Positions 15,117 through 40,589 of a stretch of DNA of 40,589 bases are shown piece after piece. Numbering within the stretch: position 1 is the stretch's first letter; every line of letters starts with the position of its first letter. This DNA comes from a virus (taxonomy: Duplodnaviria > Heunggongvirae > Uroviricota > Caudoviricetes): positions 1 through 40,589 of the IMG/VR virus record IMGVR_UViG_2718217867_000004; one strand, 5' to 3'. The notes beneath the pieces were generated by a model. It had not been told where the DNA came from, did no database searches, and saw only the letters and a list, made by a program, of their open reading frames with translations. Position numbers and translations under genes: made by a program.

Positions 15117-17092
15117 CGTCTCACTCCTGCAAGCCTCATATGCAGCGGTATTTTCTTACGGGGTATCTCCGGTGCTTTTGCGCCCGGCATACTTAAACTG
15201 ATTTTTTCTTCCGGCTGCGCGGGAGGCGGCTCCAGGAATGACAGATCCTGCGCCGCCCGTTCAGCCAGACGGTTCAGTTTCAGACCGTGATGCAGCAGCC
15301 CCTTCAGGGCCGCGTAACCGTACACCATGCAGTCCAGCGCCTCATTCGCCCGTCCGGCAGACAGCTCCCAGACACGGTACACCTGCCCGCCGTTCTCCTT
15401 ACGCACCAGACGCTCAGAGAGCAGCTGACTGAAATAATGCAAATCCAGAAACGACGGAAAATGGATACAGCCTGCGGCAGGCGCGCCTGCCGGATCCGGC
15501 TCAATATGGAGCCGGTGCCTGATGTCGTCCTTCGCGGAGTTCACCCCCAGAATGACGGGGCGAAAGGATTTCCGGTTGCGGGAAGAAACACTGCGCGTCG
15601 GCCAGACGGGATTACGTTTGCCGCCAGTGGCGGACTCACCTTTTGTCGCCCAGATACGACGCCCGATACGCGCCTTCGAGAACTCATACACTTTGTTGGT
15701 GTGATGACCGCCCGAGTCATGGCAGACCGCCGAGAGCGTCAGCCCGAAACCGTCAGCCCGCCGCCAGACCTGCTTCAGATACGCATCAAGGCGCTCCCAC
15801 GGCTCTTCTGTTTCAAGGTCACCAAAAATCACGTCATGCGCAATCACCCAGCATTCTTCGTTCATGCCCCAGCCGAGAACGGTGATTTCGAAGCGGTCAT
15901 CCTGCGTATCCACCCCGGCGGTCAGCAGGAGCACGCCATACGGCACCTCCGCTCCCCAGACCTCGACACGGGCAATCAGCCGCTGTTCACTCATCGCAAA
16001 CTCGCCTGCATCCTCGTAAGGCTCGCCCAGCGTGGTATTGATGAATGTCTGGCGCATCAGCGGATCGTCCTTCACCCTCAGCCATTCGGCGACCAGATTC
16101 GGCCAGGAGGCATTTGAGTTCGGGCTGTAGCCCGTCCAGATATGAAAACCGGCATGCCCCCTGAATGGTGCACCGGCACGCCATTCGCCTTTTGCCAGCA
16201 TCCCGGGCAGTTCACTGTGCACAATCACACAGCCGTGGTGACGGCACAGATAGTAAGCGGTCTCCGGCAGCCCGTTACCTTCGCTGTCCTTTTCCCACTT
16301 GATGCCGTAAGGGGTGCTTTTGCTGCCCCACTCCAGCACCTGATATTCACCGCAGTGAGGACAGGGCACGAAGTAGCGGCGCTGATCGCTTTCCAGCCAG
16401 GCTTTTTCAATACGGCTCACGCCTTTCACGGTTGGCGTTGAGCCGAGAACAATCTTGCGGTTCCAGAAGGTTTCGGAACGTTTTGTTCCCAGCGCAATCT
16501 GATCCCCTTCGGACCCTGCGCCCCCTGCCGGATACCCGTCCACCTCATCAAAAAGGATGATGCGGCATGTGATACGGCGAAAACCGCCGGGGGAGTTGGC
16601 CCCGACCAGCGTGAGGTTTGCGCCGTTGGAAAAGGTTTTGCGAAGAATGGTCTGGTTGCTGTTTTTTGCCTTCGGGTCGCCGCTGATGGCTGCCAGCACC
16701 GGCGTGTCGCGCAACATCGGGGCAATTTCGATTTTACTGTAGTCTTCGGCATCCTCCACCCTCGGCTGAACCACCAGGATGGAGGACGGATCATGTGCCA
16801 GGTAATAGCCCACCACATGGTCAAGAATTTTCGTGTATCCCACACGGGCTGATTTCATCACAGACACATACGTGACTGACGGGTCGGTGATGGCATCCAT
16901 TATGCCGTCCTGATAGGGATAGGAGCGGAATTTCCCCGTCTGGGCACTGGTCTCACGGGACAGTACAGCGAAGGTGTTGGCCCACTGGCTTAAGGATAAT
17001 GGCGGCGGAGGCGCAAGATAACGCGGACACGAAAGCAGCGCCTCCTCAAACTGTATCTCCGTGGGTTTCGCGCCTGTCAAATGCAAGTTCAT
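15113..17092 (-). CDS. Terminase large subunit (lambda gpA family)
   Basis: 659 aa; overall sequence typical of gpA-type terminases; overlaps the small subunit gene. Confidence 0.95.
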   Translation of the reverse strand: MNLHLTGAKPTEIQFEEALLSCPRYLAPPPPLSLSQWANTFAVLSRETSAQTGKFRSYPYQDGIMDAITDPSVTYVSVMKSARVGYTKILDHVVGYYLAHDPSSILVVQPRVEDAEDYSKIEIAPMLRDTPVLAAISGDPKAKNSNQTILRKTFSNGANLTLVGANSPGGFRRITCRIILFDEVDGYPAGGAGSEGDQIALGTKRSETFWNRKIVLGSTPTVKGVSRIEKAWLESDQRRYFVPCPHCGEYQVLEWGSKSTPYGIKWEKDSEGNGLPETAYYLCRHHGCVIVHSELPGMLAKGEWRAGAPFRGHAGFHIWTGYSPNSNASWPNLVAEWLRVKDDPLMRQTFINTTLGEPYEDAGEFAMSEQRLIARVEVWGAEVPYGVLLLTAGVDTQDDRFEITVLGWGMNEECWVIAHDVIFGDLETEEPWERLDAYLKQVWRRADGFGLTLSAVCHDSGGHHTNKVYEFSKARIGRRIWATKGESATGGKRNPVWPTRSVSSRNRKSFRPVILGVNSAKDDIRHRLHIEPDPAGAPAAGCIHFPSFLDLHYFSQLLSERLVRKENGGQVYRVWELSAGRANEALDCMVYGYAALKGLLHHGLKLNRLAERAAQDLSFLEPPPAQPEEKISLSMPGAKAPEIPRKKIPLHMRLAGVRR

Positions 17093-23399: not shown

Positions 23400-23620
23400 A
23401 GATCAATAAGCACTTCTCTGATAGGCTCATTCCGCTTTTGCGCAAAGCAGATGGGCCTGAGGTTTGCTTGTGACCCCAACGCATGAGCAGATGGCTGGCA
23501 GGTGCCGCTAACACCCACCAGCCGCCCATTACCACAAATAAAAAAGCCTTCACTGCGGAAGGCGTCTGTAACAACCGAACTGATAATCAGCCAGGCCCGC
23601 CATAACAAGCTGGGTCAGTA

Positions 23621-23740
23621 TTAGCGCTCGCGTGAAAGGTAAGTATTCTGCGCAATCTCCCCGACGGTCGCCGGTTCGGTGACGCTTAATTCATTAAACA
23701 CAACTCTGGCGGTTTCGGTCATATCCTGCTGTTTTAGCAT
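23621..23740 (-). CDS. Small hypothetical protein (39 aa)
   Basis: Start at MLKQQDM with a weak AAGGGA SD; the longer track ORF needs a GTG start. Confidence 0.25.
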   Translation of the reverse strand: MLKQQDMTETARVVFNELSVTEPATVGEIAQNTYLSRER

Positions 23741-23861
23741 GTCTTTTTCCCTTTTCTGGTTAACGTGACATACCAATAACTCATGTCGAAAAAGCCAGCA
23801 AGCAGAAAGACCAGTATTAATAACCACAGCACATTTAACGCACTGCGCTACTTTGCGAGCA

Positions 23862-27834: not shown

Positions 27835-27892
27835 AGCCTGCTTCTCCTTGCCTTTCGGCACGTAAGAGGCTAATCTTCAGTTGTCGAGACAT
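27686..27892 (-). CDS. mok-like overlapping reading frame (modulator of killing)
   Basis: 68-codon ORF starting upstream of hok and overlapping it in another frame, as in hok/mok/sok loci. Confidence 0.45.
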   Translation of the reverse strand: MSRQLKISLLRAERQGEAGYEAAKGDVNRPDRHLFNRHSDGTGNEERPLRGTNPNRPDGGRCLHSLRT

Positions 27893-28870: not shown

Positions 28871-29470
28871 TCAATCTCCTTTGGTACCAATGTTTACAGC
28901 CTGGCAAGCCTCTTTGAGTACCCAATCAACAGCGTCTTTCCATGCTCCGGTTTCGACTGGCGGATTTTCACGCTTAACCTGTTCATAGAAGCGCACTGCT
29001 TTAACCAGTCCTTTCGGTACTACTGGCGATGGCTGTTTGGCTTCCAAATCAGCAATTCTGTCAACCACGGCATCGACGGCATCTGAAAAGCCGAACCAGT
29101 TACTCCACTCCGGCCTGTTACCGGTTGCTGCAAAGTACATATCATCTAAAGCAGACTCAGCATGGTCACGCTCATTGATGAGTTGTTCTTCGCTTTTCTC
29201 CAGTTCTGCTATGCGCTTGTTTTGGGTTTCCCGTTCATCCAGCAACTCCTGCGCTACTTCTGGGTTGAAAGCTGCGATATAACGAGCGTTGTTCTCTGCG
29301 TTTTTCTGTTCGTCGAATCCAGGCCAGTCGACAATATCTCCGTGATGATTATCTCCTGGTGTGTGCACGGCGTACGTGCCGTGTTTGCCCGGCGAAATAA
29401 ATGCGCCCCATTCGCCCTGTGTTGCCTGTTTTGCTATCTCACGCAGTGCCTGATAGTTAATTTCTCTCAC
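28871..29470 (-). CDS. Ead/Ea22-like protein
   Basis: 199 aa; N-terminus (INYQALREIAKQATQGEWGAF) typical of the Ead/Ea22 family; GTG start overlapping the upstream stop. Confidence 0.75.
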   Translation of the reverse strand: MREINYQALREIAKQATQGEWGAFISPGKHGTYAVHTPGDNHHGDIVDWPGFDEQKNAENNARYIAAFNPEVAQELLDERETQNKRIAELEKSEEQLINERDHAESALDDMYFAATGNRPEWSNWFGFSDAVDAVVDRIADLEAKQPSPVVPKGLVKAVRFYEQVKRENPPVETGAWKDAVDWVLKEACQAVNIGTKGD

Positions 29471-29687
29471 TTCGAACCTCTCTGTTTACTGATAAGCTCC
29501 AGATCCTCCTGGCAACTGGTACAAGTCCGGCCCCCCTTAACGGCCAGTCGCCGCCGTTTATCTATCGGCTCGCCACACTCACAACAATGAGTGGAGGATA
29601 CGGAACGAAAATTTGTCTGGTATTTTGCAGGGCACTATTGCGCTGAAGTTCTTCGATCTCTGATGCCTGATCGGCAATATCAGCCAT
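29467..29687 (-). pseudogene. TraR/DksA-family C4 zinc-finger gene, frameshifted
   Basis: N-terminal frame MADIADQASEIEELQRNSALQNTRQ... stops after 41 codons; the -1 frame encodes the zinc finger ...HCCECGEPIDKRRRLAVKGGRTCTSCQEDLELISKQRGSK up to a stop overlapping the Ea22 start; frames meet near a T4 run at about 29606-29613. Confidence 0.6.
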
Positions 29688-30705: not shown

Positions 30706-31019
30706 TCCTGAACCCTCCTGTCGAAATAAACATAGTTATTCACCGTGCGCAGCGGCATTTCGAATTTTTCCGCTATCTCGCGACGTGAAATGCCCTGCTC
30801 ATGTAGCTGTCGTATCACCTCAACGCTGCTCCGGGGCATTTTTACCGACTGGTGAAAATCACCCCGCAACATCAGACTGATACCCAGTTCCCGCGCTTTT
30901 GTTCTTACTGCCGCCTCCGTACGCCCCGTCAGCTTCCCGATGTCTTTCACCCGCATGGTTCCCGCACACTGCCGGAGTATCAGGGTTTCAGCCCTGCACC
31001 ACGTCTTCCGGTTGCCCAC
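30702..31019 (-). CDS. Putative HTH DNA-binding protein (NinH-like C-terminus)
   Basis: Two HTH-like segments (DIGKLTGRTEAAVRTKARELGI; ISRREIAEKFEMPLRTVNNYV); start uncertain (GTG at 31019, GTG at 31106 or ATG at 30956). Confidence 0.45.
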   Translation of the reverse strand: MGNRKTWCRAETLILRQCAGTMRVKDIGKLTGRTEAAVRTKARELGISLMLRGDFHQSVKMPRSSVEVIRQLHEQGISRREIAEKFEMPLRTVNNYVYFDRRVQE

Positions 31020-31021
31020 TG

Positions 31022-31768
31022 CTATTGTTCTCCGGTAGCTGCAATCTTCCGGAGAATATCCCTGTGTTTGTTCAGCTCCCGCAGCGCAGCACAGACACGC
31101 TCCCACTTCCGGATATCACTTTTCACCCTACGCAGCTCGCGGTTTGCCTGTCGCAGCGATGGCAGAACCAGATTATCCACTCGCTTTTCCGTTACCGATG
31201 ACTGCGACTGTACAATGTCCGCCACAGTTTCTGTTTTAATATCTTCCTGTGCTGCAGCTTCCTGTACTGGTAACGCAACACCTGCTGGCTGAGGAAAGGC
31301 TTTACCATTGGTTTCCGCTACCGATTCAACTTTCGGCTCTACTGGTAAATTATCACCCGGTATGCAGTAACGAAATTTACCGTTCTGATTTACGCGAATC
31401 AGGCGTCCTTTGCTGATTGCCATAGCCAGCGTTGAAGCCACTTTGCGTGATGTGGTACCGAACAACGTAGCCAGTTCATCCGCAGTTAGTGGACCACGTT
31501 GTTCAATCGTCGCGGTTAAATCGCACTCCGGTATTTTCGCGACTGTTGCCGTGGTGGTTTCTTCCGGCGGTTCTGCCTGCTCTGGCTGTTCCTGCTGAGC
31601 GTTGTTATCAGCCACACGCCAGGTGTATACGCTTTTATCAACGAAACCAGCCTTTTTCAGCTCCCACAGCTCGTTCAGCACTTCTTCACGACTGATATCA
31701 AGTCGCGCAGCCAGCTCTACCGACGTGGCTTTGCCCATTGCTTTCAGTGCGTCAAAAACGGTTTCCAT
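31022..31768 (-). CDS. Winged-helix-like protein (DUF1627-like), hypothetical
   Basis: Start placed at [13 protein letters not shown] (GGGAGA SD); central Pro/Glu/Gln-rich linker; sits between the DnaC-like gene and the nin region. A 1-nt mismatch between my stop reading and the track coordinates is unresolved. Confidence 0.55.
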
Positions 31769-31790
31769 AAAATTTTTCTCCCGGTAAAAA

Positions 31791-32537
31791 TTACTTCTCT
31801 GTTCCTGGCTGACCGACATTCGAACGCCAGCTTTCCCAGTTAAAATTCACCCAGCGACCACCGTTCATGGTCATGCGGTCCATCACTCGCTCTCCCAGAA
31901 GGGTGCTCATCGCGGTATGGTTCAGGTTCGTCAGCATCCCGACACTGCGCATCGAAGCCGTTCTGCGGTCGACTATCTGGTTCAGAGTGACCTGTTCATT
32001 GCGTGTATCACGCTGCATGCCAATCTCATCCAGAACCAGCAGGTCAACGTTGCACAATCCCTGCAAAAACTTTTCACCCGAGTTTTTGTTGTCGTAGCTG
32101 CCGTGCAACGCCAGCATCACATCAGCCACAGTGACCACAATCACACTCCGCCCCTTCGCCAGAAGATGGTTGCCGATGGCTGCCGCAAGGTGATTTTTTC
32201 CGGTACCCGGCTTACCGCTGAACACGAAATTTGTGCACCTGGTCATAAGTTCGTCCGCGATGGATTTTGCATGACTCAGCGCGTGGCGTTGCCCGTCGTT
32301 CTGCACCCGGTAATTCGCAAACGAACACTTCTGGTGCAACGGCTGGATACCCGAACGGTTCAGAATTTTTTCCGCATGAATCTTGTTATTCAGGCGATTA
32401 ATCTCCTCACTACGTTTTCGCCCTTCAGCAAGCCACCACTCGTACCACTCTTCCCGTGTCCGGTACGGCGCGGTTACATGCTGTGGGGCCAGTCTGCGGA
32501 TACGTTCAAGAACACCGCTTGCCGCAATATTTTTCAT
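31791..32537 (-). CDS. DnaC-like helicase loader (IstB-type AAA+ ATPase)
   Basis: 248 aa; Walker [18 protein letters not shown] and Walker B LLVLDEIG. Confidence 0.9.
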
Positions 32538-32543
32538 GGTCAG

Positions 32544-33350
32544 TTACCCCCTGAAGCCTGGCGGGATCGCACTATCCGGTAACGAGACGGTGTTAACCTG
32601 TCGGAGTAACGTCTCAGGTCGAACACCTTTCGGCGCGAACAAGCCCTGGTATTCATTGGCGATGCTGTGTCGAATCACCTGCTCAGGTGAAAAACCCTGC
32701 TGGCGGAATTTTTCCAGCTCCCGTATCGCCCCGTTAGCGCCCTGCTCCGTTCGAATCGGTTTTCGCAATGCCTGGCGAAATTCAACCCACTCACGCCAAA
32801 GCGAGACAGAAATCCAGTTCGGCAAAGCAATATCCAGAGGGTCAAACTTTTTGACACCTCGATTCCCCCGGGGGGGATTTAGGGGGGGATCTGTTTTTAG
32901 ATCTTTATCTGTATCTTTATTAGTTGCCTTTGTGTTCGCGCCATGTTCAAACACCATTTCAACGTCTGTTTGAACACCTGTTAAATTTCGCTCGTGTTTT
33001 GTTTGAGCATATGATTCCTTTCTGTTTCTCCTGGCCTGAACAGATGCTTTTCCCGCAGCCGATTTTTTTATTGATTTTTCCCTGACTGATGCCAGATCTT
33101 CCTCAATCCGAAGGTGCATCCATTCATCGCCGTTATCGCAAAAAAACTCCCGCAAGGATGGTTCAACATCAGCCCATCGCTCGTTAGTCAGACGGGCAAT
33201 TTTTGCCAGCCTGTTTTTAGGTATTGGCTTTCCTGTTTGCCAGTAATTGAACATCAGTAACAAATACGCACCATGCTCCTCTGCTGACAAATGCATGGTG
33301 TCGGCCAGGTAATCAGCTATGTACAGTTGCATGTATGGTAATGCGGCCAT
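32544..33350 (-). CDS. Replication initiation protein (YdaU-like N-terminus, DnaT-like C-terminal domain)
   Basis: 268 aa; N-terminus MAALPYMQLYIADYLADTMHLSAEEHGAYLLLMFNYWQ, basic linker, C-terminal DnaT-like region; sits upstream of the DnaC-like gene as in the Rac ydaU-ydaV arrangement. Confidence 0.75.
   Translation of the reverse strand: MAALPYMQLYIADYLADTMHLSAEEHGAYLLLMFNYWQTGKPIPKNRLAKIARLTNERWADVEPSLREFFCDNGDEWMHLRIEEDLASVREKSIKKSAAGKASVQARRNRKESYAQTKHERNLTGVQTDVEMVFEHGANTKATNKDTDKDLKTDPPLNPPRGNRGVKKFDPLDIALPNWISVSLWREWVEFRQALRKPIRTEQGANGAIRELEKFRQQGFSPEQVIRHSIANEYQGLFAPKGVRPETLLRQVNTVSLPDSAIPPGFRG
32841..32940. promoter_or_regulatory. Candidate replication origin inside the initiator gene
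   Basis: GTCAAACTTTTTGAC palindrome, CCCCCGGGGGGG and GGGGGGG tracts, two GATCT units (Dam sites) and an A/T-rich stretch, all within the linker-coding region. Confidence 0.4.
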
Positions 33351-33420
33351 AATTGCCTCTTCTGATACCGAATCTCTTAATCACGCACTACCGGAAGCGA
33401 TCCAGTATAAATATTGCCAG

Positions 33421-33845
33421 TCAATGCACCGCCACGGCATTTCCTGCCGGACCACCGCGATTCATCTGGTCGAACAGAACGATCGCTGATGCAACGAACT
33501 CATCGATATCTTTCACCAGCCGATCCCGTCGCTCGACAATCTCCCGGTGATACTCCGAACTGTGACTACGCATTCGGGCCACCAGCGGTGGCGGCATTGC
33601 CTTTTCGATCGCTGGTAACAACGCCTGAATTTTTTAACCGCATCAGGAGTATCTTTCTCCACCCAGCGGAAAATTTTCTGAGTATTGCGAGCCAGGGCTT
33701 CTGGGTGTGAATCGTCGTACAGTTCCGGAAACGTCATACCCAGCTCAAAATAAGCCCGGGTTATTTCAGCCGCCGGAACTTTTTCACCGTCCGGATACGC
33801 CCAGGCATTCATCGCCATGCGGATGTGTTCATGCTTGATTTTCAT
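33421..33845 (-). pseudogene. YdaT-like gene split by a frameshift in an A6 tract
   Basis: N-terminal ORF (33513-33845, MKIKHEHI...) and a +1-frame ORF (33421-33621) overlap; inserting one A in the AAAAAA run at about 33628-33633 joins them into a single ORF of about 140 aa. Confidence 0.55.
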
Positions 33846-34057
33846 GAATCATTCTTTCCTTCGTTCGAGGTGTTATCCTGCTTCTTGTAAAGTTCTGGAT
33901 TGTATTTCAATTCACCGTTAGTAATTTCATCCAGCTCCATTGCGCGAAGTTTGGGAATAACTGCTTTCCACCGCACAACAGCCACATGTGAAATTCCAAG
34001 AGCCTCAGCTACTAGTCGCTTTTTTTTGAAATAGCGCAGAACATCATCTTTGAACAT
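33842..34057 (-). CDS. Cro-like HTH regulator (YdaS/Cro family)
   Basis: 71 aa with HTH KKKRLVAEALGISHVAVVRWK; divergent from cI across an operator-bearing gap; ATGA overlap with the YdaT-like gene. Confidence 0.8.
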   Translation of the reverse strand: MFKDDVLRYFKKKRLVAEALGISHVAVVRWKAVIPKLRAMELDEITNGELKYNPELYKKQDNTSNEGKNDS

Positions 34058-34085
34058 AAAACTCTCCTGTTATTTCGAACAAGAG

Positions 34086-34150
34086 GGTAACAATAGTTAC
34101 ATAATGATGTCAACCATAGTAACATTACTTGGTAGTAACATTGGTTACAT
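34086..34150. promoter_or_regulatory. OR-like operator cluster between cro and cI
   Basis: Three sites with inverted GTAAC/GTTAC half-sites (GGTAACAATAGTTAC, GTAACATTACTTGG, GTAACATTGGTTAC) in the divergent promoter region. Confidence 0.6.
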
Positions 34151-34823
34151 GAAAAACACTATCAGCGAACGTATTCGGAATCGTCGAAAAGACGTTGGAC
34201 TAACTCAACAGCAGGTTGCGAAAGCAATCGGCATATCTCGCGTATCCGTAACAAAATGGGAAAATGGCTCTTCAAAACCTGACGGTGAGAATTTGCATCT
34301 GCTGTCAAAATTGCTTTCCAAATCTCCTGAATGGATTCTTTATGGAAAGGATGGTCACGATAAAACCGACGATCTGCGTCTGAATCAGCACCTTTACATT
34401 AGTGACAACATCGCCCGGTTGCCCGTTTTAACGTGGGAACAGGCTGGTTATTGGGATATGAGTTGCCCAGTAACCGAGATTCCTGGTATTAAGAATTGGG
34501 TTGATGTCATGACAAAAACCGCTGAAAACTCTTTTTTATTGCGCGTTGAGGGAGATGCGATGACGAACTCTAACGGCCTCCCAACCATCCCCGACGGATC
34601 TACCGTGCTGATCACTCCATGCTCAAGTAACATTAGAGAACTGGTGGGAAAAATAATCTTAATCCAATTGGAAGGAACGCCGAACGTAACACTAAAAAAA
34701 GTTGCGATTGACGGACCAAACATCTATCTGCTGTCACTGAATCCGCTTTACAAACCCATTGAACTGAATGGTGGTTACACTATTAAAGGTAAAGTTTCAC
34801 AAATACATCAATATTTAGACTGA
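34149..34823 (+). CDS. cI-like repressor (N-terminal HTH, C-terminal S24 LexA-like peptidase domain)
   Basis: HTH (LTQQQVAKAIGISRVSVTKWENG) and S24 autocleavage domain (VEGDAMT...KGK); start chosen at MKNTIS just after the operators; the track ORF begins at 34050. Confidence 0.85.
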   Translation: MKNTISERIRNRRKDVGLTQQQVAKAIGISRVSVTKWENGSSKPDGENLHLLSKLLSKSPEWILYGKDGHDKTDDLRLNQHLYISDNIARLPVLTWEQAGYWDMSCPVTEIPGIKNWVDVMTKTAENSFLLRVEGDAMTNSNGLPTIPDGSTVLITPCSSNIRELVGKIILIQLEGTPNVTLKKVAIDGPNIYLLSLNPLYKPIELNGGYTIKGKVSQIHQYLD

Positions 34824-34828
34824 GTCAG

Positions 34829-34855
34829 AACCCGCATTCATTGCGGGTTTTTTTG
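34829..34855 (+). terminator. Rho-independent terminator after cI
   Basis: Hairpin CCCGCATTCATTGCGGG followed by T7. Confidence 0.6.
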
Positions 34856-34874
34856 CGGCCCTATATGTACCTTT

Positions 34875-39481: not shown

Positions 39482-40589
39482 AACCGCTGTTCCGGGATTA
39501 TCTCCGTATTTTGACAAAAGAAATAACAAAGTTTACTGGCGTTACAGGCATCCCATCACAGGTAAAAATCATGGACTCGGCAGTATTGACCAGAAACTGG
39601 CGGAAACCATTGCAGCAGAAGCGAACAGCCGTCTTGCCAGACAACAAATGGAGCAAATGCTCAGTCTGCAGGAGAAAATTATTAATGATACCGGCGGTTC
39701 ATCAACCGTTTCCATTTTTCTGAATAATTACAGAAAAATTCAACAGGAAAGATATGAAAACGGAGAAATCAAACTCAACACGCTGAAACAGAAAGCGGCC
39801 CCTCTCAGGGTTTTTGATGAACGTTTTGGCACCAGACCGTTAGATGCCATAACCGTAAAGGATGTGGTATCGGTGCTGGAAGAGTACAAGTCCAGAGGAC
39901 ATAACAGAATGGGACAAATTTTCAGGAAGGTACTGATCGATGTTTTCCGGGAGGCTCAGCAAACGGGCGATGTCCCGCCAGGCTTTAACCCTGCAGAATC
40001 GGCAAAAAAACCACAGGTGCGGATATCAAGACAGCGACTGACTTTTGATGAGTGGACGATGATTTATAACGCAGCGGAAAAGGATGGTTACTTTTTACAG
40101 CGCGGTATGCTGCTGGCACTGATGACAGGCCAGCGCCTTTCAGATATTTGCAAAATGCAATTTTCGGATATCCGGGATGGTTATCTTCATGTCGAACAGC
40201 AAAAAACAGGAACCCGGATTGCCATCCCTCTGGCTCTGCGTTGCGATAAATTAAATCTCACCCTGGATGATGTGGTGTCATCCTGTCGCGATTGCGTTCT
40301 TAGTCCGTGGCTATTGCACCATCATCACGCGAAAGGGACAGCTAAGCGCGGCGGGATGGTTAAGCCAGCAACGTTAACCGTTGCATTTAAAAAAGCGCGG
40401 GATTCTGTGGATTACAACTGGCGTGCTAATGGCACCCCACCCTCTTTCCATGAGCAGAGATCTTTATCAGAGCGATTGTTCAGAGAGCAGGGAATTGATA
40501 CCCAAATTTTGCTGGGTCATTCGAATCAAAAAATGACCGATATTTACAACGATGCACGCGGCAAGGAGTGGAAAAAACTGGTCATTTGA
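39459..40589 (+). CDS. int: Tyrosine integrase, lambda Int family
   Basis: 376 aa; C-terminus ...FHEQRSLSERLFREQGIDTQILLGHSNQKMTDIYNDARGKEWKKLVI parallels the lambda Int catalytic region (HELRSLSARLY...LLGHKSDTMASQYRDDRGREWDKIEI); stop is the last codon of the window. Confidence 0.95.
   Translation: MARPRKYKTAVPGLSPYFDKRNNKVYWRYRHPITGKNHGLGSIDQKLAETIAAEANSRLARQQMEQMLSLQEKIINDTGGSSTVSIFLNNYRKIQQERYENGEIKLNTLKQKAAPLRVFDERFGTRPLDAITVKDVVSVLEEYKSRGHNRMGQIFRKVLIDVFREAQQTGDVPPGFNPAESAKKPQVRISRQRLTFDEWTMIYNAAEKDGYFLQRGMLLALMTGQRLSDICKMQFSDIRDGYLHVEQQKTGTRIAIPLALRCDKLNLTLDDVVSSCRDCVLSPWLLHHHHAKGTAKRGGMVKPATLTVAFKKARDSVDYNWRANGTPPSFHEQRSLSERLFREQGIDTQILLGHSNQKMTDIYNDARGKEWKKLVI

Follow-up and report, generated by a model that had tools for sequence, protein, structure and literature searches.

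A single-base frameshift at a homopolymer interrupts a CII-like ydaT gene in a lambdoid prophage

The window, that is, the whole stretch of 40,589 nt that was analysed, carries a YdaT-family gene whose reading frame is broken at a run of six A's. Judging from the sequence, two small ORFs found there are the halves of this one ydaT gene and no chance pairing, since the restored protein matches the YdaT structures 8BT1 and 3C4R from end to end. The ORFs overlap in adjacent frames of the minus strand, at 33513..33845 (110 aa, starting with ATG) and 33421..33621 (66 aa); the location of ydaT on the minus strand corrects the earlier, sequence-only reading of this DNA. In a three-frame translation of 33421..33845 (minus strand), frame 1 reads MKIKHEHIR...DTPDAVKKF and then unrelated residues until a stop, and the frame at a 2-nt offset reads KIQALLPAIEKAMPPPLVARMRSHSSEYHREIVERRDRLVKDIDEFVASAIVLFDQMNRGGPAGNAVAVH, followed by a stop. 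The junction on the sense strand is GCG GTT AAA AAA TTC AGG, and adding one A to the A6 run produces a continuous ORF of 141 aa (...DAVKK-IQALLPAIEKAM...AVAVH). The sequence-only reading had proposed a YdaT-like gene split by a single-base homopolymer frameshift, from which one extra A would regenerate a protein of about 140 aa. The matches of the repaired frame to 8BT1 and 3C4R bear out the first part of this proposal, and the second is confirmed by a 141-aa product that is 100% identical to WP_089578666.1. The A6 run it described is also present, but it was placed at 33628..33633, two bases off the true site. The features of the region are collected in Table 1.

Table 1. Position and content of the split ydaT gene, its candidate operator and the neighbouring genes in the window
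Feature	Position	Strand	Content
DnaC-like ATPase gene	31791..32537		Follows the YdaU-family gene
YdaU-family gene	32544..33350	-	DUF1376; replication module; downstream of ydaT
ydaT 3' part	33421..33630	-	-1 frame; codons I73..H141 and TGA stop; covers the last part of the POU domain, the hinge and alpha-6, the tetramerisation helix (limits from PMC9986795)
ydaT 5' ORF	33513..33845	-	110 aa: native M1..K72, then 38 residues out of frame (FRRCYQRSKRQC...DGIGW) up to a premature stop
A6 homopolymer	33630..33635	-	T6 on the + strand; one base deleted here relative to A7
Candidate operator	33835..33852		Inverted repeat TTGATTTTCATGAATCAT at the junction of the cro-like stop and the ydaT start
cro-like gene	33842..34057	-	Pfam P22_Cro; directly upstream of ydaT
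CI-like repressor gene	34107..34823	+	Divergent; HTH_3 and Peptidase_S24; LexA family

The restored protein aligned without gaps to PDB 8BT1 over residues 2-141 (E = 3e-84) and over its full length to PDB 3C4R (E = 1.5e-80). Against the Pfam family PF06254 (YdaT_toxin), the restored 141 aa scored 39.1 bits, above the cut-off of 21; the 110-aa ORF alone scored 19.6 bits, below it. Judged by these matches, this copy of ydaT belongs to the YdaT family by ancestry, yet it is disrupted and has no uninterrupted ORF of about 141 aa. [quoted passage not shown] In that prophage, YdaT activates a PRE-like promoter located between ydaS and ydaT and has been called a functional analogue of lambda CII (PMC8630535). 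The two regulators occupy the same slot, after cro and before the replication genes, and both activate an otherwise silent promoter directed back to the repressor gene (PMC8630535). They differ in their target, a direct repeat for lambda CII and an inverted repeat for YdaT, a POU-type protein that tetramerises through a four-helix bundle (PMC9986795), and neither family nor structure searches with the restored YdaT found a sequence match to lambda CII. The N-terminal POU-type HTH domain of YdaT is rigid over residues 3-90, with the recognition helix at 50-63, and is followed by a hinge (96-99) and by helix alpha-6, whose core consists of I103, L110, V111, V114, F117, V118 and A121; the operator bound by the tetramer, TTGATTN6AATCAA, lies where ydaS ends (PMC9986795). 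On this model, YdaT in the window would be the counterpart of lambda CII, a tetrameric POU-type HTH protein that would bind TTGATTN6AATCAA at the cro/ydaT junction and, once bound, would switch on a PRE-like promoter for repressor synthesis.

The surroundings of ydaT are those of a lambdoid prophage immunity region, in the gene order expected for the YdaT family: a divergent CI-like repressor gene (its start, 34107, was adopted from the PapM-36-2 annotation), a cro-like gene, ydaT and the replication genes. The TGA stop of the cro-like gene overlaps the ATG of ydaT (ATGA). The YdaT of CP-933P (E. coli O157:H7; 8BT1) has the same length as the restored protein, 141 aa (PMC9986795, PMC8630535), and its gene likewise occupies the slot between a cro-like gene and replication genes, with the operator at the junction. 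The two proteins differ at the tract, which encodes E71-K72-M73 in CP-933P and K71-K72-I73 in the window, where the gene, unlike that of CP-933P, is interrupted after K72. The repressors differ too, that of the window being CI-like and of the S24/LexA family and that of CP-933P being PaaR2, accompanied by paaA2-parE2 (PMC8630535).

The candidate operator in the window (TTGATTN6AATCAT) departs from the published YdaT operator by one mismatch. Matches with up to two mismatches occur twice in the whole window, with 1.9 expected by chance, so that the support for TTGATTTTCATGAATCAT comes from its position; the OM operator of CP-933P occupies the same position at the cro/ydaT junction (PMC9986795). 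By this measure, a putative operator is still present at the start of the interrupted gene. A sigma-70 consensus scan of 33300..34200, a type of scan that is uninformative for activator-dependent promoters, returned no promoter-like site, and Rfam gave no match within ydaT to an antisense or regulatory RNA such as an OOP-like one. A weak terminator-like pattern is present on the plus strand at 33585..33600. Elsewhere in the region, Rfam gave a weak Trp_leader match at 34763..34856 (plus strand; E = 0.0097), with 27.2 bits where the gathering score is 41. The match overlaps the CI-like repressor gene at its 3' end and is probably due to chance, from a terminator-like hairpin. The YdaU-family gene contains two G7 runs (C7 in the gene sense) located 5 nt apart, at 32870..32876 and 32882..32888. 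Neither run differs in length from its PapM-36-2 counterpart, and although both could be hot spots for slippage, the gene is uninterrupted in the window.

Among 5,426 complete E. coli genomes searched with a 550-nt query, one near-identical relative was found, E. coli PapM-36-2 (99.8% identity over a 551-nt span). Its YdaT (WP_089578666.1; NZ_CP050646.1) has 141 aa and is the protein to which the restored product is identical. At the DNA level, ydaT (33400..33860) is identical between the two across 461 nt except for A6 against A7, and the 3' part of the gene is thus unchanged from its intact PapM-36-2 counterpart. Collinearity with the ompW-adjacent prophage of PapM-36-2 extends over all 40.6 kb of the window, at 99.6-99.9% identity, with 119 substitutions in total and only 6 SNPs in the 12.7 kb around ydaT. 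Six gap events were detected at five places. Two of them form a compensated +1/-1 pair in the terminase, two are single-base indels between genes, and the others are the loss of 7 bp at about 23622 and of one base in ydaT. The 7 bp (AACTGGC) missing at 23622 relative to PapM-36-2 constitute a second disruptive indel in the prophage, one that is not of the homopolymer type; it shortens a small conserved hypothetical ORF (WP_000917767.1; about 23615..23750, minus strand) from 65 to 39 aa (MLKQQDMTE...YLSRER, then a stop). A TraR/DksA-family zinc-finger gene (29467..29687, minus strand) is also frameshifted, with a 41-aa ORF that ends early and the CxxC...CxxC part in another frame. This lesion is common to PapM-36-2, where it is annotated as 'frameshifted', and it is therefore older than the split between the two prophages.

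PapM-36-2 thus differs from the window in having A7 and an intact ydaT, an intact 65-aa ORF and an IS remnant, none of which the window has. The IS remnant, of about 1.1 kb ('integrase core domain', partial), lies at 31000..32096 of the PapM-36-2 segment (L004) and corresponds to window positions 27843..27848; the BLAST segments that flank it overlap by 6 bp, as with a target-site duplication. In the terminase large-subunit gene, the +1 and -1 indels fall within 4 nt (15589..15593), alter one or two residues and keep the frame. The ends of the window coincide with gene boundaries in the PapM-36-2 prophage. At base 1, the window opens just beyond the start of a large leucine-rich-repeat (tail-fibre-like) gene; at base 40589, it closes on the final base of the integrase gene, which adjoins ompW. 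The window looks like a provirus call trimmed at gene boundaries and missing part of the tail region.

In all intact homologues examined, the tract is A7 and is read in frame as GTT AAA AAA ATT (V70-K71-K72-I73). A total of 117 homologous copies were complete enough to evaluate, 114 from IMG/VR and three from species-representative genomes; 115 of these 117 complete A7 copies encode exactly 141 aa, across 50 protein variants, and it is therefore the full-length form that is maintained. Comparison with intact ydaT homologues, which the sequence-only reading had put forward as a check, thus gives A7 and 141 aa as the standard, and not proteins that are naturally short (about 110 aa) and whose downstream frame is unconserved, the pattern that would have spoken against a split gene. 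A 74-nt region around the tract had 5,536 matching sites across 3,061 complete E. coli genomes, none of them at 99% identity or more, and all 60 of the matches listed span 75 nt, that is, A7. The three matches in species-representative genomes (E. albertii, Shigella flexneri and a MAG-labelled contig) were all A7, and A7 with 141 aa likewise occurs in the more distant variants of strain MIN10 and phage vB_EcoS-689R5. Judging from these sequences, the in-frame A7 is the ancestral state and is nearly universal.

Other tract lengths were searched with short probes, and the 34- and 36-mers detect only copies with exact flanks. The 34-mer spanning A6, which A7 copies are unable to seed in megablast, matched a single genome, E. 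coli E3, and the A8 36-mer had zero matches in complete E. coli genomes. In IMG/VR, the A7 35-mer occurred in at least 120 contigs, against no contig with A6 and none with A8. In E3 (NZ_CM130010.1), the gene ACVX3V_RS11215 (segment L129, 2803..3227) has undergone the A7-to-A6 change at the same codons and is annotated by PGAP as 'frameshifted'. A four-sequence alignment showed that it is a different ydaT variant, with many substitutions relative to the window gene, and its repressor, cro and replication genes also differ from those of the window; E3 therefore represents an independent A6 event and not shared ancestry. A metagenome scan for A6 gave a single match, in a 2.3-kb contig of 1.7x coverage that carries another variant and requires 10 gap openings in 411 nt when aligned to the window. 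This A6 is plainly sequencing noise, and we rejected the contig, indel-ridden and of another variant, as confirmation of the allele. Protein data follow the same pattern: 96 contigs are on record for the restored 141-aa protein, the contig index holds no contig encoding the 110-aa product, neither split ORF has an exact match among about 15 billion catalogued proteins, and a search with the out-of-frame tail found it in none of the catalogued proteins.

Loss of one A from an ancestral A7 would make translation leave the native frame after K72. The ribosome would then read 38 unrelated residues and stop 92 nt early, and the product would lack residues 73-141, which comprise the last part of the POU domain (73-90), the hinge and all of alpha-6, including the core I103...A121. 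By analogy with a published truncation, such a product should be unable to oligomerise or to bind DNA; the A6 ydaT would be a null allele, given that a different and longer fragment, YdaT(1-96), is already monomeric and does not bind the operator (PMC9986795). Lacking the oligomerisation helix, the truncated product would likewise not be expected to poison a tetramer of intact YdaT. A strong polar effect on the replication genes seems unlikely, as the normal stop follows the premature one after only 92 nt. By analogy with CII, the prophage would be expected to be stably repressed and inducible, and its progeny to establish lysogeny poorly.

We consider the chances slightly better than even that A6 is a recent real mutation in a decaying prophage. 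It would have originated as a very recent replication-slippage deletion in the resident prophage. A CII-type function is required to establish lysogeny and not to maintain it, so that its loss costs the lysogen nothing. Several observations lead us to infer a biological rather than a technical origin. The other 22 homopolymers of 7 or more bases in the window, including six 8-mers and one A9, have the same lengths as in PapM-36-2, which favours a real mutation over an error. The 7-bp deletion at about 23622 is, in our judgement, untypical of sequencing error. The TraR/DksA frameshift common to both prophages indicates that the element was already decaying, and the independent A7-to-A6 change in E3, itself annotated as 'frameshifted', also counts for a real mutation.

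That the true DNA is A7, with an intact 141-aa ydaT, is a serious possibility that we rate at somewhat under one half. The missing base would then reflect an under-called homopolymer, of the kind produced by long-read, 454 or Ion-type sequencing, or imperfect polishing. The sole difference from an identical intact gene is the loss of one base in a 7-mer, a classic error class, and ydaT shows no downstream decay of any kind. The allele is also absent from the other assemblies and protein catalogues searched; no second independent assembly carrying it was found in the protein catalogues, the contig index, IMG/VR or the species-representative genomes. The same miscall occurs among the many indels of the low-coverage metagenome contig, showing that this tract is miscalled in poor data, and the window contains a second homopolymer difference, from T5 to T4, at an intergenic site (19586). 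Against an artefact, the 22 other runs of 7 or more bases agree with the nearest relative, including the A9 and the six 8-mers, which should be more error-prone, and neither the 7-bp deletion nor the compensated +1/-1 pair is of the homopolymer type; the sequence therefore does not look generally error-prone. The near-identity to PapM-36-2 (461 nt of ydaT and 6 SNPs in 12.7 kb) would fit a recent event and an artefact equally.

Both a pseudogene and a sequencing error, two of the three explanations offered by the sequence-only reading, thus stand. The third, a functional slippage tract, is very improbable, A7 being ancestral and near-universal. Such a tract could act as a phase-variable ON/OFF switch of the lysogeny activator, or it could restore YdaT by programmed -1 frameshifting or transcriptional slippage: a -1 shift on AAA AAA, or an extra A in the mRNA, regenerates the native 141-aa protein. 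The A7-to-A6 change has also arisen at least twice in unrelated ydaT variants, and the tract is therefore the most mutable site of ydaT. The two-frame arrangement is, however, not conserved, as homologues, including those of E. albertii and Shigella, are in frame with A7, and elsewhere A6 is found only in the annotated E3 pseudogene and in one error-laden contig. The zero-frame sequence, T AAA AAA (T), is not a canonical X XXY YYZ heptamer, the RNA fold of the downstream 106 nt is unremarkable (z = -0.88; matched or bettered by 35 of 200 shuffles), and no Rfam family matches within ydaT. Six or seven A's are fewer than the run length needed for efficient slippage of E. coli RNA polymerase. On the unconserved split, the non-canonical heptamer and the unremarkable downstream structure, programmed frameshifting and transcriptional slippage were rejected. 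As the main reading, phase variation of the tract was also rejected: among thousands of copies, A6 and A8 are near-absent and tract-length polymorphism is rare (in complete E. coli genomes, probes that detect only exact flanks found one A6 and no A8, against the 5,536 sites matching the 74-nt region).

It is more improbable still that the A7 tract serves as a heritable, reversible switch or as a leaky slippage site that tunes the amount of a CII-like activator; if it did, the switch or slippage would shift the lysis-lysogeny bias of the prophage lineage, and the independent A7-to-A6 changes in the window and in E3 would be its footprint.

The interruption, a homopolymer frameshift that reflects either a pseudogene or an error, is an event of a known type; it affects a prophage regulator that is well characterised and does not imply a new mechanism. 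The locus is best annotated as a frameshifted ydaT (CII-analogue) pseudogene, or as a repaired ydaT if the reads show A7; annotation as two small hypothetical ORFs or as a 'toxin' would be inappropriate. Should the deletion be real, we predict a prophage that is maintained and inducible yet poor at founding new lysogens, and the loss of ydaT would represent a small step of prophage domestication.
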